From Psilocybe cubensis (Eukaryota), in NCBI GenBank assembly GCA_017499595.2, contig CM039002.1, forward strand, positions 1-64,000: a stretch of 64,000 nt of DNA. The letters are read 5' to 3'. The notes under the pieces were generated by a model, which was not told the origin of the DNA, did not search any database, and was given only the letters and a program-made list of their open reading frames with translations. Shown here piece after piece: positions 1 to 14,737 of this stretch. Position 1 is the stretch's first letter; the number at the start of each line of letters is the position of its first letter. The position numbers and the translations under genes are program-made.

Positions 1-172
1 CTAAACCCTAAACCCTAAACCCTAAACCCTAAACCCTAAACCCTAAACCCTAAACCCTAAACCCTAAACCCTAAACCCTAAACCCTAAACCCTAAACCCT
101 AAACCCTAAACCCTAAACCCTAAACCCTAAACCCTAAACCCTAAACCCTAAACCCTAAACCCTAAACCCTAA
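1..172 (+). repeat. Terminal telomere tract (CCCTAAA)n = (TTTAGGG)n on the other strand; left chromosome end
   Basis: Uninterrupted 7-mer repeats from base 1, with the C-rich strand 5'-terminal. Confidence 0.97.
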
Positions 173-978
173 CCGTAAGTATTCCTTGCTATAAAGTAAC
201 AAACATCTACTTACAAGCAACACATTGGATTGAATAGCTAAACCTAAACCTAAACCCTAAACCCTAAACCCTAAACCCTAACCTAACCCCAACCCTAAGC
301 TAACTAAGTCTAACCTTAGTAGGAAGTAAGGTAGGCGTGTGAACTTCCGAACGGCATGTGATTGTGAAGGGCCGGATCTAATTTAGTACATGGGAAAAGT
401 TACTTAGTACTTCGGGAAAAGTTCCTTAGTACCGTGGAAACATTTTTGATGGACCGGATCATGAACTGTCCAATTAAGATTCACAACAATCAATCATTCT
501 ATTGTTTGATTGTTAGGTAAGGACCCAGGTAAGTTATTTATACTCTAGACATGTGAATATTCCCATGTCGCGGTTACTCGGAGCCACGTAACCAGAGTAA
601 TCTATATCCATGTGATTCACATCACAGTCAATAACCCACGATGTCAAAGAACAAAAGTGTTGGATCCACTTTTGACAGGTTACCATGTGCCACATCGACC
701 CGTGACACTCTGTTCATCAGAGACCTGTCTAACTTGACAATAAACATTGACAGATTTGTGATAGTCGGTAAGATACATGACAGCTGCGCAGCATCACTTC
801 ACGCGCTGTCATCGGATGTCTAGAACATTCCTTCTAAGAATAGCCACTGAAGAGTCTATAAAGACGAAAGGGCTGGTTGTTGGGATCCCCCAACAGCCCT
901 CTGGCTACTTTCCATTTAACTCCCAGTTTAAACTAGTCGCTCGCACCTCGCTTCGCTCGGTGCTCGCTCCCCCCCTAA
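167..978 (+). mobile_element. 5'-truncated Penelope-like 3'-end unit (pLTR) A
   Basis: Near-identical to 8255-9064; starts at the internal CCCTAA seed and ends at cgctccccccctaa. Confidence 0.92.
836..911 (+). ncRNA. Type I hammerhead ribozyme, copy 1 (predicted cleavage after C901)
   Basis: Stem I tagcca/tggcta; core CTGAAGA (847-853); stem II gtct-ataa-agac; GAAA (866-869); stem III gggctg...cagccc; CUC triplet. Confidence 0.92.
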
Positions 979-1002
979 ACCCTAAACCCTAAACCCTAAA
1001 AC

Positions 1003-1440
1003 CTCTTGACATGAGAATATTCCCATGTCACGGTTACTCGGAGCCACGTAACCAGAGTATTTTATATCCATGTGATTCACATCACAGTCAATAACCCACG
1101 ATGTCAAAGAACAAAAGTGTTGGATCCACTTTTGACAGGTTACCATGTGCCACATCGACCCGTGACACTCTGTTCATCAGAGATCTGTCTAACTTGACAA
1201 TAAACATTGACAGATTTGTGATAGTCGGTAAGATACATGACAGCTGCGCAGCATCACTTCACGCGCTGTCATCGGATGTTCCAGAACATTCCTTCTAAGA
1301 ATAGCCACTGAAGAGTCTATAAAGACGAAAGGGCTGGCTGCTGATAACAATCAACAGCCCTCTGGCCTTCTTTCCATTTAACTCACAGTTTAAACAAGTC
1401 GCTCGCACCTCGCTTCGCTCGGTGCTCGCTCCCCCCCTAA
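1003..1440 (+). mobile_element. 5'-truncated pLTR unit B (variant haplotype)
   Basis: Copy of the distal part of the 3' UTR, preceded by CCCTAAA repeats (~973-1000), same 3' end as the other units. Confidence 0.9.
1297..1372 (+). ncRNA. Type I hammerhead ribozyme, copy 2 (cleavage after C1362)
   Basis: Same core; stem III apex tgat-aaca-atca; stem I gcca/tggc extended by aagaa/ttctt. Confidence 0.9.
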
Positions 1441-1504
1441 ACCCTAACCCTAAACCCTAAACCCTAAACCCTAAACCCTAAACCCTAAACCCTAAACCCT
1501 AAAC

Positions 1505-2200
1505 CCTAACCTAACCCCAACCCTAAGCTAACTAAGTCTAACCTTAGTAGGAAGTAAGGTAGGCGTGTGAACTTCCGAAAGGCATGTGATTGTGAAGGGC
1601 CGGATCTAATTTAGTACATGGGAAAAGTTACTTAGTACCTCGGGAAAAGTTCCTTAGTACCGTGGAAACATTTTTGATGGACCGGATCATGAACTGTCCA
1701 ATTAAGATTCACAACAATCAATCAATTGATTGTTAGGTAAGGACCCAGGTAAGCTATTTATACTCTTGACATGAGAATATTCCCATGTCACGGTTACTCG
1801 GAGCCACGTAACCAGAGTATTTTATATCCATGTGATTCACATCACAGTCAATAACCCACGATGTCAAAGAACAAAAGTGTTGGATCCACTTTTGACAGGT
1901 TACCATGTGCCACATCGACCCGTGACACTCTGTTCATCAGAGATCTGTCTAACTTGACAATAAACATTGACAGATTTGTGATAGTCGGTAAGATACATGA
2001 CAGCTGCGCAGCATCACTTCACGCGCTGTCATCGGATGTTCCAGAACATTCCTTCTAAGAATAGCCACTGAAGAGTCTATAAAGACGAAAGGGCTGGCTG
2101 CTGATAACAATCAACAGCCCTCTGGCCTTCTTTCCATTTAACTCACAGTTTAAACAAGTCGCTCGCACCTCGCTTCGCTCGGTGCTCGCTCCCCCCCTAA
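1505..2200 (+). mobile_element. 5'-truncated pLTR unit C (variant haplotype)
   Basis: Follows an interstitial (CCCTAAA)n tract at ~1435-1510; matches ~8358-9064 with diagnostic variants. Confidence 0.9.
2057..2132 (+). ncRNA. Type I hammerhead ribozyme, copy 3 (cleavage after C2122)
   Basis: Same sequence as copy 2. Confidence 0.9.
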
Positions 2201-2277
2201 ACCCTAAACCCTAAACCCTAACCCTAAACCCTAAACCCTAAACCCTAAACCCTAAACCCTAAACCCTAAACCCTAAA

Positions 2278-2974
2278 CCCTAACCTAACCCCAACCCTAA
2301 GCTAACTAAGTCTAACCTTAGTAGGAAGTAAGGTAGGCGTGTGAACTTCCGAAAGGCATGTGATTGTGAAGGGCCGGATCTAATTTAGTACATGGGAAAA
2401 GTTACTTAGTACCTCGGGAAAAGTTCCTTAGTACCGTGGAAACATTTTTGATGGACCGGATCATGAACTGTCCAATTAAGATTCACAACAATCAATCAAT
2501 TGATTGTTAGGTAAGGACCCAGGTAAGCTATTTATACTCTTGACATGAGAATATTCCCATGTCACGGTTACTCGGAGCCACGTAACCAGAGTATTTTATA
2601 TCCATGTGATTCACATCACAGTCAATAACCCACGATGTCAAAGAACAAAAATGTTGGATCCACTTTTGACAGGTTACCATGTGCCACATCGACCCGTGAC
2701 ACTCTGTTCATCAGAGATCTGTCTAACTTGACAATAAACATTGACAGATTTGTGATAGTCGGTAAGATACATGACAGCTGCGCAGCATCACTTCACGCGC
2801 TGTCATCGGATGTTCCAGAACATTCCTTCTAAGAATAGCCACTGAAGAGTCTATAAAGACGAAAGGGCTGGCTGCTGATAACAATCAACAGCCCTCTGGC
2901 CTTCTTTCCATTTAACTCACAGTTTAAACAAGTCGCTCGCACCTCGCTTCGCTCGGTGCTCGCTCCCCCCCTAA
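2278..2974 (+). mobile_element. 5'-truncated pLTR unit D (variant haplotype)
   Basis: Follows interstitial telomeric repeats at ~2195-2283; nearly identical to unit C. Confidence 0.9.
2831..2906 (+). ncRNA. Type I hammerhead ribozyme, copy 4 (cleavage after C2896)
   Basis: Same sequence as copy 2. Confidence 0.9.
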
Positions 2975-3570
2975 ACCCTAAACCCTAAACCCTAAACCCT
3001 AAACCCTAAACCCTAACCTAACCCCAACCCTAAGCTAACTAAGTCTAACCTTAGTAGGAAGTAAGGTAGGCGTGTGAACTTCCGAACGGCATGTGATTGT
3101 GAAGGGCCGGATCTAATTTAGTACATGGGAAAAGTTACTTAGTACTTCGGGAAAAGTTCCTTAGTACCGTGGAAACATTTTTGATGGACCGGATCATGAA
3201 CTGTCCAATTAAGATTCACAACAATCAATCATTCTATTATTTGATTGTTAGGTAAGGACCCAGGTAAGCTATTTATACTCTAGACATGTGAATATTCCCA
3301 TGTCGCGGTTACTCGGAGCCACGTAACCAGAGTAATCTATATCCATGTGATTCACATCACAGTCAATAACCCACGATGTCAAAGAACAAAAGTGTTGGAT
3401 CCACTTTTGACAGGTTACCATGTGCCACATCGACCCGTGACACTCTGTTCATCAGAGACCTGTCTAACTTGACAATAAACATTGACAGATTTGTGATAGT
3501 CGGTAAGATACATGACAGCTGCGCAGCATCACTTCACGCGCTGTCATCGGATGTCTAGAACATTCCTTCT

Positions 3571-4577
3571 AAAGAATAGCCACTGAAGAGTCTATAAAGA
3601 CGAAAGGGCTGGTTGTTGGGATCCCCCAACAGCCCTCAAGTACTCGTCCTCTCCCAAACTCCTGCCGCTTGTGCCTTCCCAACTCATCCGGGAGCCCTTT
3701 CGTCACTGATCTTGCCCTTGACTCGGGGACGTTTCATCGACATGTTGGCTGCCTCACGGCAAGCGGGGCCCTTTTTCTTTCACTCGCTCACGCCTTCTAT
3801 GTTGGGTTACGGAGGTCATACAAACTCGTTTTAGTCTAGCTGCGGGGATATCCAGCTATGATGACTTTGTAATTCGAGGGCGCGCAGTTCTTCAATGGGT
3901 ATGGACATCAGGTGAGAGTACACTGGGGGTTGTCAGGACCAGCTCTGCTGGATACGCTCCTGGCAAGTCGGTTGCAGCCGACGACACTACCGAATTGCTG
4001 GGACGTCCTAAAGCTTGTGGGTACCGCCGACCGCTGGAAACAGCCTAGGCACCGGTGGCGACCGGGTATGGTAACAATCCCCAAGATTCAGCGAAAGCTG
4101 GAATGGATAATCAGCAGCGAATCCGTAACGGTCACGCCGACGGAAGCGTTCAACGACTAGGTGGTAGTGGGGTCTTCGGATCTTAAGATATAGTCTTGGG
4201 AGTGGGGAAACCCACATCTGGTATCTAAACCGCGCCTCGCTGCTTACGAGGACGGCCCGAAGTCCAGAACCGCTTAAAACGCGGGTGACCCGGCCTCCCC
4301 TTAGTAAAGGGAGTTAACACAAGGATGGACAAATAGTTCGTCGCCGGAAATGAACCTGTGGCTGTAATGGCTGATGTGGCGCCCCTTGGTAAAGGGCTTA
4401 AAGGGTATTAGCCTGCCATGTCCAATGGCATGAGAGTGTCCCTTGGTAAAGGACTTAATAGGCAATAGCCTGCTCTTTTGTCATGAGCGGTATGTAGTGA
4501 TCGTTTGCCTGTACGGTAGCGCCCATTGCTTGCACTGGTCCACGCCCGTAAAAAATCACGAGCCGCTGGCCTTCTTT
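3571..4577 (+). ncRNA. Split hammerhead ribozyme, copy 5 (3571-3636 joined to 4566-4577)
   Basis: 5' part ends ...aacagcccT at 3636; 3' part Ctggccttcttt resumes at 4566; the join equals 8918-8995. Confidence 0.9.
3637..4565 (+). ncRNA. Group I self-splicing intron, subgroup IC1-like, 929 nt, no homing endonuclease
   Basis: P aattgctggga (3993-4003); Q aatcagcagc (4109-4118); R gttcaacgactag (4148-4160); S aagatatagtc (4185-4195); P3 cactacc/ggtagtg (3985-3991/4163-4169); P7 GACTA/TAGTC; P5abc with an A-rich bulge; P8 gggtc-ttcg-gatct; P9 gtggg-gaaa-cccac; P1 with U3636.G3926; terminal G4565. Confidence 0.92.
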
Positions 4578-4679
4578 CTATTTCAAACTCACAGTTTAAA
4601 CTAGTCGCTCGCACCTCGCTTCGCTCGGTGCTCGCTCCCCCCCTAAACCCAACGACTTTGCTATCACCCATCAGTTACC

Positions 4680-5838
4680 ATGTCATCCCAATACTCTGCT
4701 GCATTCTCTCGTGCCATGTCCCCTACCCTGGACGCACTCACCCAGGCCGTCGTCAACAACACTGTCTTCGGCGTCAACGATGAAGCAGGCCGCCACAACG
4801 CTCTTATCGACGAGCTGGCCACTGTAGTCATCAAAAAAATAGCTGAGTGCCGCTCCGTTGACCAAGTCATAGACTGCGTCTTTTTTGACTATCGTGCTGC
4901 CCTCAGGGAGTTTCTCCTCAACCTCGCATCGTGGTGCGACAAGAGGGAAACAGTCAAGGCTAGCCTCGAGCGCCTTGAATCTGCCGTTAGCGCAGGCAAC
5001 ACGCCCAATCGCCTTAAGGTGAAGGCACCCGAGTTCCAACTTACGAAGGAATTCGCGGATGCCGGGTCAGCGGAGGCTCTTCGAGTCTCCACTACGTTCT
5101 CTTCCGCTCGTGATGCCTTCCAAAAGGCAATTAACGACGGCGCCGTTCAGGCGAAAAAGGACGAGCTGGCTTTTTGGGATGATAAATGCGCGCTCAACTC
5201 TTGCTACGAAGCTGCTGCCCTCATCGTTAAGGCAACTTACGATGATCGCAAATCCAGCTACAAGCTCCCTGTTTTCTCTACAGACAACAAGGGAGTTCGA
5301 CGTATAGCAGAGTGGGTAGTGTCTCCGCAAAAGAAAGCCGAATGCAGTGCGCTGCAAACTATACTGCCGGCGATCTTTTCTCATATCAAACAGATTGTCA
5401 ACATGCGCCACCGCGCCTTGGCAATTAAGATTGAGAAAAAGCGGACGACTGCGGCAACAGCCGATGTCGAGATGGCCGATGCGACCAAACCAGGTCCATC
5501 GATTCAATCCCTTATTGATAAGGGCTTGAATGCACGTCTCAAAAAGCTCAACCTTGGATCTGTGGGCAAGAAGGCAAGTTTTCGTAACCCTTCACCCATA
5601 ATTCTGGACACTAATTATTACTCTAATTACCCAGACTTTGTCTGGCCAGAATTCGTCCAAGGCTCCTCAACCTCAGGCCAGGAAAGCTGGCCCTTCGAAA
5701 CCCAAGTCGTCGTCGACGCCTTCGCAGAGGAAGCCTCAAACCAAGGCTTCCAACAAGGTCGACAACAAGAAGAAAGGGAAGGGGAGAGCTCCCGTCAAGA
5801 ACAACGATCCAAAGGGAAAGGGAAAGGCAAGAGCCTAG
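4680..5838 (+). CDS. Predicted spliced ORF1 (join 4680-5573, 5635-5838; 365 aa) with a Lys-rich basic C-terminus
   Basis: AAG|GCAAGT donor at 5574, ctaat branch-like sites, CCCAG acceptor at 5634; splicing links codon 298 in frame to the basic ORF 5638-5838. Confidence 0.7.
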
Positions 5839-8213
5839 ACGCGCGGTCTACTGTAGCATCATTTACGTCGGTGAGACCCGCCTTCCCCAACTCTATTCCT
5901 GACGATATACTCACCATGACTAAAACAGACGCAGTTTCTTTTGTACACCTCAATACCCCGATTTCATTCTTATTGGCTGGCCAGTATAGATCTAGTGTAC
6001 ACTGTAGTCCTGGTGTTTCGGTCCCTGTTGATGTAGCAAATGATTTATCTCTTGGACTCAATTATATGTTTTTTACACTGCCTTCTAAAAGTCTGATCAT
6101 GCAAGCATGGAATGATTTTCAACGAAGAATAAGATGGCGTATCTATTTTTTGTTTAAAGAAGGCATGAATAAACCTTTCGATCCAGACTATGGAGTAAGC
6201 TCTAAAAAGAAAGAGAAACCTCCAATGTTACCGCAATTTATGGAACTTGGCCTTTCAATGGGACGTCGGTACGTTATTAAAACGATCGCAAGTATCCCGG
6301 AAGAAGCCCTTAAAGAGATGCGAAAGCACGCGTTCTCTCCTAAAAGGGACAAGATCCAAAAGTTTCTTTTCGATAACAACTATGTTATTACGATGACAGA
6401 TAAGAATCTTGGCCTCGCGGTGTCTGAACGCGACTGGATATTAAGGAATGAGCTCAATCTTCTTGAAGATGAACGCAACTACGAAGAGTTAGAATTCGAA
6501 GTTGCGCAAGAAGTTATGAAGAGCAAAATGATTCAGATGCAAACTCTCGCACGTACCGTCGAAGATGAACATCTGTTTCTATTTGAACTTGGGTTGTCTC
6601 GATTCTTTCTATCGAATGTACCGGAAGACGGATCATCGTTCAAGTATCCTCAATTTCATGGTATACCTAAAATCCACAAGAAACCTACTGGATTTAGGCC
6701 CATAATTCCGTGTCACTCTGTAGTATTTAATCCTGCAGCCAAGTTTGTATCAAAAGAGCTTAAGCCGATTATTAAATCGACTCCTTCAATCATTCACGGA
6801 ACGAAGGATCTCTTTACGAGATTAAGCCAATTGCGTATAGACCCCAAACGACAATGGTATTTTGTCACCGGGGATGTAGTTGCTTTCTATCCCAATATTC
6901 CGTTGGACTTGTGCATCGAAATCGTTTGTAATATGTACGAGGAATGGTTACTCAACGCTTCGGAAGAAAACACTGCATTAGCCCATATTAATCCAAATTC
7001 GTTAGAGAATAACTTGGTTAAATTGGGCATCTTTAAACGTGCTATCGAGATTGGCAATACGCAATTGATAACACAACATGGGTCTAGATATTTTAGACAA
7101 AAAAATGGCCTCGCAATGGGCGTCGCGGATTCTCCGGACCTTGCTAACCTCTTTGGAGCCCATTTTGAAATAAAGTCAAAAATCTTAGACCACCCAAACG
7201 TGGCCTTCTATGGAAGGTACATCGACGATTGTTTCGCAATTGTTTACGCCGAGTCCGAAGCACTTGCACTTAATCTTATTAAAGAAACAATAAAGTTCGA
7301 TGGTTGTGTTATCGAATGGGCTGTTTCCTCGTCGGGATGTCAATTTCTCGATGCTTTCATATTCAAGGAGTCTGGAAAACTTCATTGGAAGCCATTTGTC
7401 AAGACAGGAAACAACCGAGAACGAGTTCCATGGGTATCACATCATCCTTTGGACGTCAAACGTGGCGTCTACATTGGAGAGTTATCCAGGTTAGCCGTGC
7501 TATGTAGTACCAAGGAAATCTACATCGGAGCAATTAGAGACCTTAACGCTCTCTATTTGATGCGCGGTTATCCCGAAAACCTAGTCATGTCTTGGTGTAA
7601 GAAGAATATACAAGAACGTTGGGAAAAGCGATTCGCTTTACGAGTCGCAGAGCACGACGAATCCATTCTTGTACTTAAAACCAGATTTGATCAGGTATGG
7701 AATTGGTTTTCAGCTGCTGAACTTGGAAAGACTGTTACCGAGTACTGGTCGGCATGGTATGAACATGCCGAGAAAGGTCTGTATAGTGCAGACTCGTCCA
7801 GACCCCTTATCAAACCAGATCCAAATTACGTTCACGACCTCGATGATGTTCGCCCGGAGCTGTTCACACAGATCCTCGTGGACGGAGAAACTGAGTTCGT
7901 ACCGGATTTGAGGAAGATAGGACTACTCGGAAGTCGTTGGATAGTATCGCGAAAGCGCAATACTAATCTTTTCGACCTTGCAAATGTGTGGAAGAAAACA
8001 GTCTTTCGTAAACTGGATGAAAACATCGCTGAAAAAGGTGGTGTTGTTCCCGAAACTCAAAACGTTAATGAAACTTATCATTCTGCTCTAGTTGAAGCTG
8101 CTGAACAGATAAGTATCGAAAGTGATAACGAGATAATACTTCATAGACGTTCAATCTCACAAGAGAGGGAACATCCAGAATTCGGCAGAATATCCAAATC
8201 TTACAACCGATGA
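4680..8213 (+). CDS. ORF1-reverse transcriptase fusion of a Penelope-like element (1177 aa, unspliced form)
   Basis: Motifs TDKNLG, FHGIPKIHK, FRPII, GDVVAFYPNI, QKNGLAMGVADSPDLANLF, YGRYIDDCF, QFLD, SHHP; no C-terminal GIY-YIG; helical N-terminal part. Confidence 0.93.
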   Translation: MSSQYSAAFSRAMSPTLDALTQAVVNNTVFGVNDEAGRHNALIDELATVVIKKIAECRSVDQVIDCVFFDYRAALREFLLNLASWCDKRETVKASLERLESAVSAGNTPNRLKVKAPEFQLTKEFADAGSAEALRVSTTFSSARDAFQKAINDGAVQAKKDELAFWDDKCALNSCYEAAALIVKATYDDRKSSYKLPVFSTDNKGVRRIAEWVVSPQKKAECSALQTILPAIFSHIKQIVNMRHRALAIKIEKKRTTAATADVEMADATKPGPSIQSLIDKGLNARLKKLNLGSVGKKASFRNPSPIILDTNYYSNYPDFVWPEFVQGSSTSGQESWPFETQVVVDAFAEEASNQGFQQGRQQEEREGESSRQEQRSKGKGKGKSLDARSTVASFTSVRPAFPNSIPDDILTMTKTDAVSFVHLNTPISFLLAGQYRSSVHCSPGVSVPVDVANDLSLGLNYMFFTLPSKSLIMQAWNDFQRRIRWRIYFLFKEGMNKPFDPDYGVSSKKKEKPPMLPQFMELGLSMGRRYVIKTIASIPEEALKEMRKHAFSPKRDKIQKFLFDNNYVITMTDKNLGLAVSERDWILRNELNLLEDERNYEELEFEVAQEVMKSKMIQMQTLARTVEDEHLFLFELGLSRFFLSNVPEDGSSFKYPQFHGIPKIHKKPTGFRPIIPCHSVVFNPAAKFVSKELKPIIKSTPSIIHGTKDLFTRLSQLRIDPKRQWYFVTGDVVAFYPNIPLDLCIEIVCNMYEEWLLNASEENTALAHINPNSLENNLVKLGIFKRAIEIGNTQLITQHGSRYFRQKNGLAMGVADSPDLANLFGAHFEIKSKILDHPNVAFYGRYIDDCFAIVYAESEALALNLIKETIKFDGCVIEWAVSSSGCQFLDAFIFKESGKLHWKPFVKTGNNRERVPWVSHHPLDVKRGVYIGELSRLAVLCSTKEIYIGAIRDLNALYLMRGYPENLVMSWCKKNIQERWEKRFALRVAEHDESILVLKTRFDQVWNWFSAAELGKTVTEYWSAWYEHAEKGLYSADSSRPLIKPDPNYVHDLDDVRPELFTQILVDGETEFVPDLRKIGLLGSRWIVSRKRNTNLFDLANVWKKTVFRKLDENIAEKGGVVPETQNVNETYHSALVEAAEQISIESDNEIILHRRSISQEREHPEFGRISKSYNR

Positions 8214-8326
8214 AAAGAATACTAGCGCGTAAGGCGTAAAGCATTAGAAAAAAACCCTAACCGTAAGTATTCCTTGCTATAAAGAAACAAACATCTACTT
8301 ACAAGCAACACTTTGGATTAAATAGC

Positions 8327-8400
8327 TAAACCTAAACCCTAAACCCTAAACCCTAAACCCTAACCTAACCCCAACCCTAAGCTAACTAAGTCTAACCTTA
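8327..8400 (+). repeat. Telomeric and degenerate telomeric repeats inside the element's 3' UTR
   Basis: ccctaaa x3-4 followed by ccctaacctaaccccaaccctaagctaactaagtctaacc; units C, D and the 5' pLTR begin at this tract. Confidence 0.85.
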
Positions 8401-8917
8401 GTAGGAAGTAAGGTAGGCGTGTGAACTTCCGAACGGCATGTGATTGTGAAGGGCCGGATCTAATTTAGTACATGGGAAAAGTTACTTAGTACTTCGGGAA
8501 AAGTTCCTTAGTACCGTGGAAACATTTTTGATGGACCGGATCATGAACTGTCCAATTAAGATTCACAACAATCAATCATTCTATTATTTGATTGTTAGGT
8601 AAGGACCCAGGTAAGCTATTTATACTCTAGACATGTGAATATTCCCATGTCGCGGTTACTCGGAGCCACGTAACCAGAGTAATCTATATCCATGTGATTC
8701 ACATCACAGTCAATAACCCACGATGTCAAAGAACAAAAGTGTTGGATCCACTTTTGACAGGTTACCATGTGCCACATCGACCCGTGACACTCTGTTCATC
8801 AGAGACCTGTCTAACTTGACAATAAACATTGACAGATTTGTGATAGTCGGTAAGATACATGACAGCTGCGCAGCATCACTTCACGCGCTGTCATCGGATG
8901 TCTAGAACATTCCTTCT

Positions 8918-8995
8918 AAAGAATAGCCACTGAAGAGTCTATAAAGACGAAAGGGCTGGTTGTTGGGATCCCCCAACAGCCCTCTGGCCTTCTTT
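8918..8995 (+). ncRNA. Type I hammerhead ribozyme, copy 6, in the 3' pLTR (cleavage after C8984)
   Basis: gcca CTGAAGA gtct ataa agac GAAA gggctg...cagccc TC tggc. Confidence 0.92.
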
Positions 8996-9073
8996 CTATT
9001 TCAAACTCACAGTTTAAACTAGTCGCTCGCACCTCGCTTCGCTCGGTGCTCGCTCCCCCCCTAAAACCCTAAG

Positions 9074-12000
9074 CCCCACGCGGTAGGCGCCTTTCCTGAT
9101 TGCATTTGTTGTTTGTGTTTCGTGTTCAAAATCTTCTTTTGTTGTCGTTTAACAGCCCTGTATGGTAAAGTAGTCAAAAGACAAACAAAGAAGAGCGCAA
9201 CAAAGAAGCGGGGTGCGTATTACTGACATACTGTGCACCGGGCAGCGGATGATGCATACATGAAGGGTAGGCGGCAGAAGAAGAGGGGGAGGACGATGTT
9301 CTGAAGAATTTTGAGTCGAGCAGGAGCTTGGGAGGATTGTATGAACGGGGAGTTTAGCATTGAAAACTATAACAAGGCAAAAGCAGCATGGGTAGTAAGC
9401 GATAGAGTCGAGATATGATGTGGTGAGCATAAAAAGCATGGACATTGGAGTACAGGCATACCACAAAACCTGACGGAGGGTGATGAGAAGAGCTTCACAT
9501 CAACCTCTGGAAGCGGCACGGTTGCCTCCACACGTCTGACAACTCTATCGCTCTTCCTGACCCCGCGCGGGACCAGGTAACAAACCGTAAATCACCTTTA
9601 TGAACGGAAGGCGTGGGTTGTAAACCACAGAATAAGAGGAGGGGGATGTGCTGGGGATCGAGGAGTCCAGCGGGAGATTGTTCGAACATCAAAATGAGAC
9701 TTGACGAATGAAATGAGGCAGAACGCTTAGGGAATCTGGGAAGGAGTCAGGAAAAGAAGCGGAATCGTGCATGTCAAGGAGAAGATGGGAGACATACCAC
9801 AGATATGGATAGAAAACAGCCCAACCTAGACCTCTGTTGTGGAACACCCCATTCTCACGCTCAAATCTGTCGGGAAAGTGATGGGATGTACCCGGTATTG
9901 CGCAATTGAGCCTTTTGACGAGAACAAGGAGGGAGGAACTCACGGTGGTCCTATCTAAAAAGGGAAGGGGTTGGAGAGGATGCGAGTGTTCGAGACGTCG
10001 TAGAAGATGGGTGAAAATCGAATACGTGTAGGTCGCATGCTTGAGGATGGGATCGATCGCTTATTTGAGTGAAAGGGAGGTGGTATTATAAGTATGCTAC
10101 GACGTACCATGAGGGTTCAAACGCATCAGCAACCACCCTCAATGCATACATGTTCTAGAGGTACAATGTGCCCAGGAGGGTGACAGGATCCGGCGGTTGG
10201 TTTATGTTTGTGTGCTATGCGGATGGGGAGTTGGTGTGGTGTGTGTGAAAGAACCTTTAAATGTAAGATCATAGCTGTCTGAATTAGGTGAAGGAGGCCC
10301 TGGAAGGTGGGTTAAATCTCGCGTCGCCCAAAGCCAACGCCATCGTGTTTGTCGCACAGTGTGAGCCGAAGACGTTCAATCTCCGCTCGAAACTCGATCA
10401 CGTCAGCGCTATTTTCTCCCACGCCGCTGTATAAACCTTCAGCTTCAGCTACAACCACCAAGTTTGCAAGCGCGATCATGTATCACTTTCATCTGTTCAA
10501 TATGCATAATTCACTTGGACTAATCATTGTGGCTCTTGTCCATTTGATAATTCGGTGCGAAGTTCTTGTCTTTTATGTCCCAACTTGATCGATTCTCTCC
10601 TCAAACTCCCACCTATCGAATCTATCTTAACACTCGTCCACTAAATACCAGGCAATGTTGTGGGTTTTATAGATACTTTCGCTAAATTGCGTGCACATAT
10701 TGACTGTGAGATTCCAGAAACACTGCGTAGTTCCAACACAAATAATGAAACATGGCGCTAGGTGCGTCATTTAACATCTACATATGAGTTCATCTAATTA
10801 CCCTGTCCGTCTAAAATCATTCACTCATCACTCTTCAGTGAAGCCAAGGATGTAGAACATCGGCTGAACGAGTTGTTAGAATAGGCCCACAAGTCCGTAT
10901 CTCGAGAGGTGTTTTCATAGGTTGAGGAGTTACAGTCAACTTTAGCACATAGTTATAGCTACATCTGTGATCTAACCGTGGTTTTTCTAACCCGGTTCCC
11001 CCTCTTCATCGTTAATTCATTTGAATTTACATATAGTATGGATGTTGGCGGTCGTTTCTCACAAAATGAGTATCTCTTAATTCATTACAAGGATTTTTGG
11101 TTTTGAGTGCGGGACAGCGTATCATCGTATCTGCACTTGATATCTACAACGGTGACGGAGTGTACGGTTTCAGGTGATAGATTCGGCGGGGCGGTGGGAA
11201 AGAATTACTGTGCATATTGTGTGTGGTTAATCAGTTATAATCTACCCGGTGTAGTACTACACGTCGCGGAGACAGTGTGCCGAATACTTGATACCTGCGC
11301 AACGTATCCAGGAAGGAGAAAATGATGTTTGACTAATAAGGCGTAACCACAAAACACAGTAAATTTCTCTACCTTGAGGTCGTTGTATGGTGTTCTGGTT
11401 CTGTCACATCCAACGTAATGGGAAAGAGAGCTTCAAAGCGTAGTGATGGAATATCAAAAGATACCGCTAGCACGGGTTCCCACAGCCAAAAGCCAGCGCA
11501 GGGTAATGACTGTGTTCAATGTTTTTTTTTCTCATGTTATAAAGATCGAGCCATCCACTGTTCATCTCAAAGATTCCCACTACATTCCGCTCCCAAATGT
11601 TGCATCTACACTTGTATTTCTCTTCAAATTGATGTCCTCGATGTCGCTCATGTTACATGCTACACAGAGAGAGAACAGAAAAACTCAACGGGGGAGTGCA
11701 GTAACCTCGCCCATACAACCTTGCCGTGTCCTCCATCCGGAGAGATAGGTAAGCAAAACATTACATTCAAGCATAGAGAACATCACCAGCAAGAAAGCCC
11801 CGGGTTCACGCCCGTTGAGCAGATATCCGAATGGATAACTGACTCGTCAGGAGATGCTTGAAGGTATATTTTGAGTTCCTGTCTCTCGAAGTGTTTGGAA
11901 CTTATGTAAATGGTTGCAGGTCGGGCCTCAAAACGAGCAAGGAAATGAAAGTATCGTGCGGGGGCGACATGTTGAACCCCATCGGATGCCCTGCCCATTT

Positions 12001-12790: not shown

Positions 12791-14737
12791 GCGGTTGGGG
12801 AGCGGGAGACTAACGTCAGATGGAAGGAGTAGTCAAATATTTTATCTATCTTATCACTGCATCTTATCAATTTGTATGAGTTTGGTCATGGCGTAATCGG
12901 CAAGCTTCAATGAGTGTGAGATTAAAGTAATCTGTGGGTGACAGTAACATTGGTAAGGTCGTGAATTGTTGATACAGTCTGATGTAGAACTTGGCTGATA
13001 AAAGGAAGTTCTGATTGATATTTAAAATAATAAAGAACATGTTTTACAATGCTGCTTCAACCCAATTCTATTCTAAAACTGTATGTATATAAATGGCATA
13101 ACCTTCTTCATACATCTTCAGCTAGGCGGTTTGGAGCTGCTCAACTGTAGTCCTGGTTGTCAGTTCTGGGAAATTTCAGGTGGTAGAATTAGTCTCTTGT
13201 ATATATACACCATACCTAAGTAACTCACTTTTCAGACTACGGGGTCAGTGCAATCTTATCGCGGTATTACTTTCCATGGACGGTCGATCGATGCCCTTCC
13301 TATATAAAGTCGATTGATGGACTGAGGAGCATCTATCAGAAGCGGGAAATTTTTATTGGGGTCAATCCAGACACGCACCACCGCTTCTGACTGCTCCATC
13401 TTCGCCTGAAATGCTAATACAGTCGACTTTAAGGTGCACAGAGCAGTGGTGGTGTCTCTCTTGAATGTGTCAAAATCGTGGCAAGACTCTTGAAACCAGG
13501 CTGGTGCCATCTCTAAAGATAATTGGTATGGCAATCAGGACTTTCTGAGCAGACAATTTGTTACCTCCAGGGACAGTCTCCTGCAGAGACTCCACATAAT
13601 TTGCAGCAGACATCAAAGCAGATTCCGTAGCTGGAACTAAATGTTGTTAAACTTGTGTAAGGGATGCTACCATAGTTGCGGGTTATGAGACACCTACATC
13701 GTCAAGCGCTGGCAATATCCCCTTATTCAAAGTGATTGATTCTTTCAATACAACGAAATTGGACAAGGGCGTGGAAGTTTGAACGGCTAGATGCTGAATG
13801 TGAGATAAAAAGGGCAAGGGGGAAGTGGACTCGCCGTTGCATGATGAGCGTCTATCATGTGAAGGTAATCTTGTTGTGGCAAGGAAAGTCCTGGTCTGGT
13901 TTGCCAAACCCTTGAACGTCAAACGGCGAACGGCGAGTCATGAACCTGGCGGTAACGTGGCGCTTTGCCATAGTAAACACGGACACATTGTGTGTTGTAT
14001 CCTTCTCCAGTAAATATTTGTGCACTGGCTTAGCGTCCCCGACCTTCGCTTTGTTTCCTAATTATTGCATTCCTGTGATTGTAAAGAACCGCAATATTTG
14101 AAACATTTAGCTCTGAATCTCGTCTTTAAGTGTGATTTAAATTGAGTGCATCGCTCTGACTTTTAACGCTTATTAGGAAAAACCACCCACCAAACAACTA
14201 CTCACACTACAGCAACATAGGTTTGACACAGCAGGTATCATGTTACCGGGTGAGCGGTACGGATAGGTACAAAAAGTGAATGACCGTACTAAGGGCATTG
14301 GTTTGGTGGGAAAAAAGTACTATGCATATTGTGTGTTGTTTACCCTTTGTGATCTACCCGGTGTAGTTGACACATCGCGGCCACCGCGTGTTCCACACTC
14401 GATTCCTTAGGCTGGAGGTAGAAATTGCTGTTCAAACGAGGGATAATCACAGAAGATCGTTAATTTCTTTACCTTGAGGTTAATGTCTGGAGTCCATTTC
14501 TCGTCCCATCGAGCGCAATGGAAGAGAGTACTAAGAAGCGTGGTGATCAAACACCAAAAGGTGGCGTTAGCATGCTTTCCCACAGCCAAAAGCCAGCGCT
14601 GAGGGATGACTTGAAGAAGGCGTGTTCAGGGTTTTTTTCTCATGTTATAAAGATCTGACCATCCACTGTTCTCTCCCAGTTTCTCACCACCTTGACCATC
14701 CCCAATCTTCGCTTCAGAGCCCCGCACTGTTTTCCCA

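Follow-up and report, generated by a model that had tools for sequence, protein, structure and literature searches.

The window, by which we mean the whole 64,000-base stretch of Psilocybe cubensis DNA analysed here, opens with a terminal telomere tract of 7-mer CCCTAAA repeats (positions 1-174; all features described below lie on the + strand), in which the C-strand reads inward. Shorter CCCTAAA tracts separate units farther inward, and within positions 1-9100 such tracts follow every tail and the open reading frame (ORF) reads inward from the chromosome tip. A unit of about 646 nt occurs six times in the window, as five complete copies and one partial copy, with 95.3-100% identity (blastn). 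The element is attached to the telomere head-to-tail: the 5′ end of its ORF faces the tip, and its 3′ end faces the centromere and terminates in reverse-complement telomere repeats.

Its upstream, pseudo-LTR-like repeat unit (2991-3636) consists of 646 nt that are 100% identical to 8338-8983 (blastn), and this copy is the only one of the six to have an insert behind it, the group I intron described below (3637-4565). Beyond the insert lies the tail (4566-4640), containing the C17 nucleotide of a probable hammerhead ribozyme (4566), the 3′ strand of its helix I, TGGCC (4567-4571), and a hairpin; distant relatives conserve the loop of this hairpin, CTCGCTTCGCTCG (4615-4627). The following segment (4641-4679), read directly from the sequence, comprises a telomere-like unit (4641-4650) followed by 29 nt of leader up to the ATG, a layout also found in the related loci L071, L046, L052 and L064. 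An intact reverse transcriptase (RT) ORF of 1177 codons occupies 4680-8213, and downstream of it a 3′ unit (8338-9058), with an uninterrupted hammerhead (approximately 8925-8989) and a tail identical to 4566-4640, forms the intron-less counterpart of 2991-4640. Because the units on either side of the RT gene share 646 nt at 100% identity, have equal tails and differ by the intron alone, the gain or loss of the intron appears to have been very recent.

Scanned alone, the RT core matches RVT_1 with an E-value of 1e-6 and 29.1 bits, just under the cut-off of 29.6, and Pfam returned no family for the whole 1177-aa protein or for a 98%-identical database protein; the RT is 98-99% identical to P. 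cubensis proteins carrying PF00078. The ORF has no endonuclease domain, and Pfam scans of it for a GIY-YIG domain gave no match. Coprina and Athena elements are described as telomere-attached, with an RT-only ORF, 3′ reverse-complement telomere repeats and flanking repeats that contain type I hammerheads whose helix III is long (PMC8557442, PMC4209133, in the sections drawn on here), and the window element resembles them in its telomere attachment, RT-only ORF, 3′ telomere repeats and probable hammerhead, also with a long helix III. With its intact RT ORF, the lack of a GIY-YIG domain, telomere repeats and head-to-tail units, the host is, as a preliminary description of this DNA had proposed, an endonuclease-less Penelope-like telomeric retrotransposon, probably of the Coprina type.

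A group I intron inside a probable hammerhead ribozyme

Comparison with intron-less units delimits the insert sharply: five intron-less copies of the approximately 720-nt telomeric unit place it at 3637-4565, a length of 929 nt. The junctions read ...ACAGCCCT, insert, CTGGCC..., whereas the other units run uninterrupted as ...ACAGCCCTCTGGCC... The boundary is ambiguous by 1 nt (a C), and this ambiguity is resolved by the group I rule that the exon ends in U and the intron in G, so that T is the last base of the upstream exon and the intron runs from a C to a G (omega-G, 4565). On the basis of the intron-less units and this U/G rule, the coordinates first given for the intron prove to be exact.

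The insert matches the Rfam group I intron family RF00028 over 3921-4217 on the + strand, with 70.9 bits (gathering score, 50 bits), an E-value of 5.6e-16 and coverage of the full model (1-253). This region is the catalytic core, with P2, P2.1, P3-P9 and a long P5 extension, and it contains the invariant J8/7-P7 stretch AAGATATAGTC; the window intron also has a long P9 extension. RNAalifold applied to five homologous cores yields 60 consensus pairs, 29 of which show at least one double compensatory change, including pairs of P3, P8 and P9. On the 5′ side, an insertion of about 270 nt occupies the P1 loop (3646-3915), its 3′ half being conserved by alignment in intron 1 of the related locus L071, and an nhmmer match between the window intron and L071 spans intron positions 160-790. 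On the 3′ side, a peripheral extension after P9 (4218-4565) folds into repeated hairpins (4376-4414 and 4440-4474), and the loci L068 and L079 share the hairpin motif with 92% identity over 39 nt (blastn). A match to suhB/mmgR at 3707-3786 was discarded as noise, with 21.6 bits against the 41 needed.

The Rfam scan of the 64,000-base window returned no second family at or above its gathering score and no rRNA family; as RF00028 is the sole family at that score, no rRNA lies near the intron, the flanks of which are the retrotransposon hammerhead and tail. The intron has no ORF: the longest stop-to-stop frame inside the insert has 108 codons, and Pfam searches of the five longest frames gave a best E-value of only 0.11 and no endonuclease domain (His-Cys box, LAGLIDADG or GIY-YIG). 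Both the position outside rDNA and the lack of a homing-endonuclease gene, as put forward in the preliminary description, are borne out by these searches. The insert (3637-4565) is a genuine group I intron of intact structure, and it is predicted to be self-splicing.

The internal guide sequence (3925-3933) is located just 5′ of P2. Its segment GGGGTTGT (3926-3933) forms 8 bp with the exon sequence ACAGCCCT (3629-3636), the pair at the splice site being a U-G wobble, and further pairing, of bases 3916-3925 with the start of the intron (3637-3645), makes P1 long. The extended P1 duplex has an energy of −27.0 kcal/mol and is the best site intron-wide for the last 10 exon nt, and an unconstrained minimum-free-energy fold of 3620-4580 recovers the guide-exon pairing. 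A brute-force complementarity search over wide ranges also returned several spurious exon/intron matches of 7-10 bp, and brute-force exon/guide complementarity was for that reason discarded as stand-alone evidence. Because chance complementarities of this length are not rare, the argument for P1 rests on the coincidence of a comparatively determined boundary, the U/G rule and a guide beside P2.

The flank had first been described as retroelement UTR, and it is indeed a non-coding leader, but not a plain UTR: the intron splits a probable hammerhead ribozyme between U16.1 and C17, one base before its predicted cleavage site. The 5′ part of this type I hammerhead (3578-3636), located by a motif and helix search, comprises the 5′ strand of helix I, AGCCA (3578-3582), the core and helix II, CTGAAGAG...CGAAA (3583-3605), and helix III, which extends to U16.1 (3636). 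The window has all core positions (CUGANGA ... GAAA ... UH) as well as helices I, II and III, with Rfam scores below the cut-offs: the intact copy at 8903-8989 scores 28.1 bits against the RAGATH-1 hammerhead (gathering score 56.3, E 0.16), and the Hammerhead_3 score is 19.3 against a cut-off of 48.5. A hammerhead core occurs in the window and likewise in 48 of the 80 related loci, among which helix I and distal helix III co-vary, and the same architecture is described for fungal Penelope-like elements in the part of PMC4209133 drawn on here. It is conceivable, if rather unlikely, that the intron is a working part of the element, hammerhead cleavage being dependent on prior self-splicing so that one ribozyme gates the other; such gating would decide whether the upstream unit is kept or the transcript is cut to the short-leader form.

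Related introns in other telomeric retrotransposons

Relatives of the window RT were sampled from 80 metagenomic loci that encode them, and their closest named RT proteins (51-57% identity) suggest that these loci are fungal and Agaricales-like. Related introns occur in five of the 80 (L071, L068, L052, L064 and L079). L071 has two RF00028 matches over the gathering score (72.8 and 76.5 bits), and L068, L052 and L064 match with E-values of 8.5e-7, 3.3e-5 and 2.1e-4, respectively, at 31.6-39.6 bits, below the gathering score of 50; L079 starts within a homologous intron, as expected of a 5′-truncated copy. The introns also account for differences in leader length. Among the 28 loci with both an ORF start and an upstream hammerhead, the distance from hammerhead to ATG is 84-172 nt in 25 and 1222-1980 nt in the other three, an excess that is wholly explained by introns.

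Relative to hammerhead cleavage, the insertion sites lie at −1 (window), +4 (L052), +13 (L071 intron 1) and +48 (L064), and L071 intron 2 interrupts the RT ORF after codon 5, so that the five complete introns occupy five different sites, all no more than about 120 nt from the hammerhead. In all five, T is the last base of the exon and G that of the intron, with a U-G wobble to a candidate guide 5′ of P2, and the boundaries in L052, L064 and both L071 introns are set by intron-less relatives. In an exon-by-guide energy table, the cognate guide is the best in its row for four of the five complete introns, the exception being L071 intron 1, whose P1 is weak and interrupted. L052 and L064 have RTs that are 88.8% identical and upstream units that are 93% identical, yet they carry their introns at separate sites; at the homologous position their guides read GGGTTAAG and GGGCGCAG, respectively, a difference that matches the one between the exons. 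For L071 intron 2, an alternative 5′ splice site following 8235 and allowing a pairing of 9 bp was rejected: the would-be guide overlaps the P2 hairpin, and the site also adds 17 residues ahead of a conserved N-terminal motif.

On the rather unlikely reading in which the intron gates the hammerhead, two lineages have it right beside the scissile bond, at −1 and at +4, and the grouping of five independent insertion sites in the roughly 120 nt that follow the hammerhead would reflect selection for gating or a preference of reverse splicing for the hammerhead-processed 5′ end.

Homologous introns with a common P1-loop insertion and P9 extension are carried by elements whose RTs are 34-41% identical to the window RT. 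These introns appear to form a nuclear group I lineage resident in the telomeric retrotransposons of several Agaricales-like fungi, and the presence of related introns in related elements at five sites indicates that this retrotransposon-resident lineage is old. The one-off capture envisaged in the preliminary description does not survive the finding of related introns in five of 80 loci and at five different sites. A recent form of that idea, in which an rDNA intron of the same genome reverse-spliced once into element RNA and was then fixed and amplified, is very improbable. The exon ACAGCCCT presumably resembles the conserved large-subunit rRNA site L2066, a likeness that would suit such an origin, and the core fits a general group I model that is itself rich in nuclear rDNA introns; set against this are the homologous introns in the elements of other fungi, with RTs only 34-41% identical, and a guide that matches the hammerhead site at eight of eight positions.

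Copies, junction reads and the route of spread

Intron words are present at a level of at least 0.90 in seven sequencing runs from two studies and at 0.49-0.59 in three further runs, with four organism labels (A-D) overall; a search of the RNA runs X19 and X20 found none. Raw-read depth in the independent run X17 is about 100x and even over the intron, about 350x over the RT gene (ORF start) and about 1360x over the unit, placing the intron in about 1/13 of the units and at about 1/3 of RT-gene depth. Four intron positions are polymorphic in the X17 reads (for example 3778 in 61 of 88 reads and 4320 in 55 of 112), and there is more than one intron copy in the genome. In addition, a 963-nt contig from run X3 has a different helix III variant ahead of the same ACAGCCCT/intron junction and represents a second unit subtype.

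The depths also bear on the idea of a single capture from the rDNA of the same genome. The intron is at a lower depth (about 100) than the RT gene (about 350), and no alternative flank appears among the loose ends listed, which makes a near-identical rDNA copy in the X17 strain unlikely.

Group I introns abound in fungal mitochondria, and telomeric repeats are difficult to assemble, which could raise the suspicion of an assembly chimera or of a nuclear mitochondrial insertion with its group I intron. Such an artefact or organelle origin is close to refuted: the intron has 54% GC and no flanking mitochondrial exon or ORF, the boundaries of the insert coincide with the intron's own ends and with the guide match, and metagenomic relatives show the same arrangement. 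Independent runs and contigs reproduce the intron, and the locus is not an assembly chimera, given the even coverage of about 100x by independent X17 reads and the contigs of other runs, which carry the intron with the same type of flank.

Nine X17 DNA reads with seven start points, all from this one run, join position 4565 to 3637, that is, the intron end to the intron start, with 1 nt of shared sequence at the junction. Reads of this kind would be expected from a second reverse splicing at the same exon-intron junction or from a reverse-transcribed full-length intron circle.

A real intron could also have spread at the DNA level only, by gene conversion, unequal exchange, break-induced replication or the action of an endonuclease encoded elsewhere, with no role for RT. 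Tandem units at chromosome ends are known to recombine frequently, and those of the window are in tandem at a chromosome end and 95-100% identical; the intron, by depth, is in only about 1/13 of them. The additional copies and the second unit subtype could be obtained by gene conversion or duplication among such near-identical telomeric units without an RNA step. Recombination, however, cannot put related introns at five sites, each with a candidate guide pairing, and there is no endonuclease ORF or domain within the intron. The precise end-to-start junction, with its 1 nt of shared sequence, is unlike a product of homologous exchange, and L079 resembles a 5′-truncated reverse transcript that starts within the intron. 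We therefore regard spread by DNA-level processes alone as improbable.

As a whole explanation, we consider it likely that an intact group I intron resides in the element and has a life cycle based on reverse splicing and the element's RT. In such a cycle, the element would first be transcribed. Where the intron is spliced out, reverse transcription would give the many intron-less copies, and where it is retained, the element RT would copy it to a new chromosome end. The free intron RNA could reverse-splice into element RNA wherever its guide matches, either at the same site in another copy or, after changes in the guide, at a new site, and the element RT would then fix the insertion as DNA. 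The occurrence of related introns in related retrotransposons of other fungi points to spread by hitch-hiking on the RNA-to-DNA copying of the retrotransposon, and the intron has probably spread by reverse splicing together with the element's RT. Of the RNA route proposed in the preliminary description, the combination of reverse splicing and reverse transcription fits the data best and is retained, with both steps and the use of the element's own RT kept as inferred parts of the model.

Comparison with known systems and significance

The window intron shares its core and J8/7-P7 consensus with nuclear rDNA introns of the IC1 and IE groups, such as Tetrahymena Tth.L1925 and Didymium Dir.S956-1, and resembles them in P2/P2.1, the long P5 extension, the U-G wobble and the terminal G. 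Nuclear group I introns form full-length circles and can reverse-splice in vitro and in cells (PMC3679873), and are described, in the parts of two reviews drawn on here, as exclusive to functional rRNA genes (PMC3679873; PMC8395846). Unlike them, the window intron and its relatives reside in a retrotransposon leader and, in the case of L071 intron 2, in a coding frame. The sections of the Coprina and Athena literature drawn on here (PMC8557442, PMC4209133) mention no group I intron, and a literature search, with the primary Coprina/Athena papers outside its scope, retrieved no group I intron in Penelope-like or Coprina elements, in telomeres or outside rDNA.

Other mobile introns offer partial parallels. 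Mobile group II introns, in retrohoming, are likewise self-splicing introns in which reverse splicing is followed by reverse transcription, as proposed here. They have their own RT and a DNA target, whereas the protein-free group I ribozyme would target RNA and borrow the RT of a retrotransposon. The twin-ribozyme introns of Didymium and Naegleria also nest two ribozymes, one of which governs the ends of an RNA derived from the other, but there the lariat-capping ribozyme is inside an rDNA group I intron, while here the group I intron is inside the hammerhead (window and L052) or just after it (L071 and L064). The spliceosomal intron of Penelope, located in the leader or pseudo-LTR, is kept through RNA copying (PMC4209133, in a passage citing Arkhipova et al. 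2003). The window intron resembles it in its position and in its proposed retention across an RNA-mediated cycle; unlike that spliceosomal, immobile intron, it is a ribozyme with its own targeting sequence.

According to the part of a review drawn on here, evidence for the complete RNA pathway of spread, consisting of reverse splicing, reverse transcription and integration, is still lacking (PMC3679873). An intron family outside rDNA, in elements that are copied from RNA by their own RT, is a setting in which this pathway can finish, and the distribution of one intron family over five nearby sites with candidate guide pairings is the footprint that the reverse-splicing pathway predicts. The family therefore offers a natural system for a direct test of the reverse-splicing model. 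L071 provides a first case of a nuclear group I intron within a protein-coding frame, and the ribozyme-in-ribozyme arrangement is found in the closest retroelement relatives of telomerase. In these elements, the intron also provides a natural marker by which spliced and unspliced templates can be told apart in telomeric retrotransposition.

The intron and its telomeric setting

The window opens at the chromosome end with a tract of CCCTAAA repeats (1-174), inward of which lie head-to-tail units of about 646 nt, each followed by a tail of about 75 nt and a short telomere-repeat tract. By blastn, the unit is present in six copies in the window, three of them with 99.5-100% identity (256-900, 2991-3636 and 8338-8983), two with about 95.6% (1484-2121 and 2258-2895) and one partial (1003-1361). 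A segment of 929 nt (3637-4565) occurs once in the window and adjoins only the unit copy 2991-3636: the junction, which reads ...ACAGCCCTCTGGCC... without interruption in the remaining copies, here reads ...ACAGCCCT, insert, CTGGCC... A single C could belong on either side of the insert, a 1-nt ambiguity; the coordinates 3637-4565, taken from the preliminary description, place a T at the end of the upstream exon and a G at the end of the insert, which is the group I rule.

The Rfam group I model matches 3921-4217 over its full length (70.9 bits, E 5.6e-16; curated cut-off 50 bits), which, together with the boundaries from intron-less units, bears out the proposal of a group I intron at this place. 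The guide sequence GGGGTTGT (3926-3933), directly 5′ of P2, is complementary to the eight bases that end the exon, ACAGCCCT, the junction pair being a U-G wobble, and bases 3916-3925 extend P1 by pairing with the 5′ end of the intron (3637-3645). The combined P1 duplex has an energy of -27.0 kcal/mol, the same long-range helix appears in an unconstrained fold of 3620-4580, and, of all 12-nt stretches in the intron, the guide site is the top partner of the last 10 exon bases. Since other complementarities of 7-10 bp also turn up in a brute-force exon/guide search over wide ranges, the P1 assignment rests on three coinciding independent landmarks, namely the boundary known from intron-less copies, the U...G rule and a guide adjoining P2. 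P1 thus encloses a loop insertion of about 270 nt (3646-3915); 3′ of P9 come further hairpins that add about 350 nt. No frame in the insert exceeds 108 codons and the five longest gave no Pfam match better than E 0.11, so the intron holds no homing endonuclease; group I was the sole Rfam family at cut-off in the 64 kb, which places no rRNA gene nearby. Both points had been claimed from the sequence and stand. The GC content of the insert is 54%, unlike that of fungal mitochondrial DNA. It is almost certain that 3637-4565 is a true group I intron and that a telomeric Penelope-like element is its host.

The host element and its predicted, split hammerhead

The insert is followed by the tail, one telomere-like unit, a 29-nt leader and an intact reverse transcriptase (RT) ORF of 1177 codons (4680-8213). 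Scanned alone, the RT core matches RVT_1 (E 1e-6, 29.1 bits, just below the cut-off of 29.6), so the blank Pfam scan of the whole 1177-aa protein is no evidence of absence; Pfam scans found no endonuclease domain in the ORF. The protein is 98-99% identical to Psilocybe cubensis hypothetical proteins carrying PF00078, and PF00078, PF28514 and PF26215 are precomputed annotations of near-identical proteins in the database. Layout and gene content fit a Coprina/Athena-like assignment: with these endonuclease-deficient Penelope-like elements, characterized in PMC8557442, the element shares an RT-only ORF, a 5′ end that points to the chromosome tip and telomere repeats in reverse complement behind every tail.

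A predicted type I hammerhead closes each unit: the helix I strand AGCCA leads into the core CTGAAGAG, a short helix II and CGAAA, then comes a long helix III that terminates in ...CAGCCCT, and last C17 with TGGCC, the second strand of helix I. The uninterrupted hammerhead at 8903-8989 aligns with the full length of an Rfam hammerhead model at 28.1 bits, below the cut-off of 56.3; the distal sequence of helix III varies among unit subtypes with the hairpin still formed, and the core motif recurs in 48 of 80 related metagenomic loci encoding RT relatives, where helix I co-varies. Fungal Penelope-like elements carry long-helix-III type I hammerheads, and the one from Serpula lacrymans self-cleaves in vitro, according to PMC4209133. 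The window intron splits the hammerhead between U16.1 and C17, one base ahead of the scissile bond, so that the predicted hammerhead would be able to form only once the intron is removed. The flanks had been read as retroelement UTR, which holds insofar as they are the leader of the element, but the split hammerhead had been overlooked.

Several features of the array extend beyond the intron. The loop of the tail hairpin, CTCGCTTCGCTCG (4615-4627), between hammerhead and ATG, is conserved where the RTs are only 34-41% identical to that of the window (L071, about 8085-8097 and 13596-13608; L052, about 1550; L064, about 737; L068, about 746) and is also present in L046, L049 and L067; the surrounding stem is variable. 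Besides the terminal tract, CCCTAAA tracts (TTTAGGG on the opposite strand) lie at 971-1000, 1437-1500, 2200-2280 and 2960-3010. The telomere repeat usually quoted for fungi is a 6-mer, unlike this 7-mer; among the related loci, six have CCCTAAA tracts (L004, L010, L041, L046, L053 and L062) and three have CCCTAA tracts (L021, L022 and L047). From 256 to 3636, hammerhead and tail units without an RT gene follow in tandem with telomere repeats between them, and such units have about four times the depth of the RT gene in the raw Illumina run X17. These could be 5′-truncated copies, or a non-autonomous, retrozyme-like companion derived from unit-length hammerhead-processed RNA.

Related introns at five sites

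A comparison with relatives of the element, suggested in the preliminary description, did bring related introns to light. The 80 loci (409,632 nt in total) were retrieved with an alignment of 22 RT proteins. In a scan of all 80 at the gathering score, Rfam had matches in L071 only, two of them to group I (7469-7787, 72.8 bits; 8344-8657, 76.5 bits). A permissive scan of five loci chosen by blastn and nhmmer gave three further matches, all below the 50-bit cut-off: L068 (1-294, cut by the contig end; 39.6 bits, E 8.5e-7), L052 (608-1009; 34.2 bits, E 3.3e-5) and L064 (957-1321; 31.6 bits, E 2.1e-4). A structure-blind screen of hammerhead-to-ATG spacing gave 84-172 nt in 25 of the 28 loci with both an ORF start and an upstream hammerhead core, and 1222-1980 nt in the other three (L052, L064 and L071), the excess being fully explained by introns. 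One consensus structure, of 60 pairs, fits all five complete cores; 29 of the pairs show compensatory double changes, including in P3, P8 and P9, which indicates that the cores evolved as ribozymes.

The RTs of the intron-bearing loci are only 34-41% identical to that of the window; the nearest named relatives are Agaricus bisporus and Leucoagaricus for L071 (55-57% identity) and Lentinula edodes for L052 (51%). The window intron is closest to L071 intron 1 (nhmmer E 3.5e-48, P1-loop insertion and P9 extension included), whose host RT is only 34% identical, and neither L071 intron has the other as its closest relative; kinship among introns therefore does not simply follow the hosts. The window intron has two copies (4376-4414 and 4440-4474) of a hairpin motif of its P9 extension (...CCCTTGGTAAAGGG...TTAGCC...), a motif that is 92% identical by blastn over 39 nt in the distant introns of L068 (609-647) and L079 (1308-1346); this sequence conservation suggests a tertiary contact or a protein-binding site. 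The L079 element is L068-like, with homology that starts within the 3′ extension of the intron (about 1040-1500) and adjoins unrelated, gene-like DNA with spliceosomal-looking introns; the tail hairpin of L068 is absent from it. Such an arrangement is what a 5′-truncated reverse transcript would look like.

With boundaries from intron-less relatives (L046 for L052 and L064, the downstream unit of L071 for its intron 1) and positions counted from the hammerhead cleavage site, the window intron lies at -1, the L052 intron at +4 within helix I, L071 intron 1 at +13 and the L064 intron at +48 in the tail-hairpin loop. Predicted splicing would give back a perfect 7-bp helix I in L052. L071 intron 2 (8184-9176) follows codon 5 of the RT ORF in phase 0, and its removal restores the N-terminus MSSNT-GSSPFVCAGSP..., fitting the conserved start of the family; a protein-coding gene would then harbour a nuclear group I intron. 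All five introns have an exon-final T, an intron-final G and a guide 5′ of P2 with a U-G wobble to the exon. When energies were tabulated for every exon against every guide, four of the five exons scored best with their own guide; the exception, L071 intron 1, has a weak and interrupted P1. L052 and L064 carry their introns at different sites despite close kinship (RT 88.8%, upstream unit 93% and introns 72.7% identical), and the homologous guide position reads GGGTTAAG in one and GGGCGCAG in the other, each fitting its own exon. Five sites are thus occupied across the window and its distant relatives, each with a candidate U-G-wobble guide, specific in four of five. The earlier interpretation of an intron captured by the element is partly supported and broadened, the single capture not being upheld.

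Intron copies and a possible route of spread

The 31-mers of the intron are present at a level of at least 0.90 in seven sequencing runs from two studies and at 0.49-0.59 in three more, under four organism labels. Three contig sets and X17 were aligned to 3200-5000; the contigs span neither junction by 31 nt on each side, the flanks in run X3 being 29 nt upstream and 5 nt downstream. Reproduction in independent runs and contigs rules out a chimeric assembly in the window. Position 3981 is A in the window and G in all four runs (86 of 86 X17 reads; X1, X3 and X9 contigs), as at the aligned place of L071 intron 1, and is either a private variant or an assembly consensus error.

In X17, with both read orientations summed, depth is about 1360 for the unit, about 350 at the start of the RT gene and about 100, evenly, across the intron, which places the intron in roughly a third of RT-gene copies and 1/13 of units. 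Intron-less units appear as 191 reads that skip 3637-4565 exactly and as several hundred more with diverged tails; the X17 loose ends listed include no alternative intron flank. The X17 reads are polymorphic at four intron positions (3778, for instance, in 61 of 88 reads), so there are at least two different intron copies, and in a 963-nt X3 contig another variant of helix III and then the same ACAGCCCT precede the intron, placing the same intron in another unit subtype. A structurally intact group I intron that lacks an endonuclease is established in the leader of this RNA-copied element, and it exists as several copies and in more than one subtype.

Nine X17 DNA reads with seven start points join 4565 to 3637 with one shared base, which points to introns in tandem or to DNA that stems from a full-length circle of the intron. 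The junction might arise by a second reverse-splicing at the exon-intron junction, feasible because the guide needs the upstream exon only, or by reverse transcription of a full-length circle, which nuclear group I introns commonly make (PMC3679873).

We somewhat favour a life cycle that combines reverse-splicing with the element's own RT. The intron would self-splice from element transcripts; spliced templates would yield intron-less copies and unspliced ones would carry it along, which would explain why the units flanking the RT gene are identical but for the intron. Free intron RNA would reverse-splice into element RNA where the guide matches, and the RT of the element would fix the event. 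The main rival, spread by recombination among near-identical telomeric units, can account for copy number at one site but fails to explain new sites with altered guides. The five sites cluster in the roughly 120 nt that follow the hammerhead, a bias that could stem from the accessible 5′ end of hammerhead-processed RNA, from tolerance of insertions in the leader, or from a function such as hammerhead cleavage dependent on splicing.

In reviews (PMC3679873; PMC8395846; PMC1299323), nuclear group I introns are described as exclusive to functional rRNA genes, and the complete pathway of reverse-splicing, reverse transcription and integration is stated to lack evidence. In the literature searched, group I introns were reported neither for Penelope-like elements nor for telomeres, nor anywhere in nuclei other than rDNA; the two primary Coprina/Athena papers lay outside this search, so an earlier mention there is possible. 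In the accessible text of papers on Penelope-like elements, 'group I intron' appears only with regard to the origin of the GIY-YIG endonuclease. For a group I intron we regard this genomic niche as new, and so would be its route of spread, borrowed from the host.
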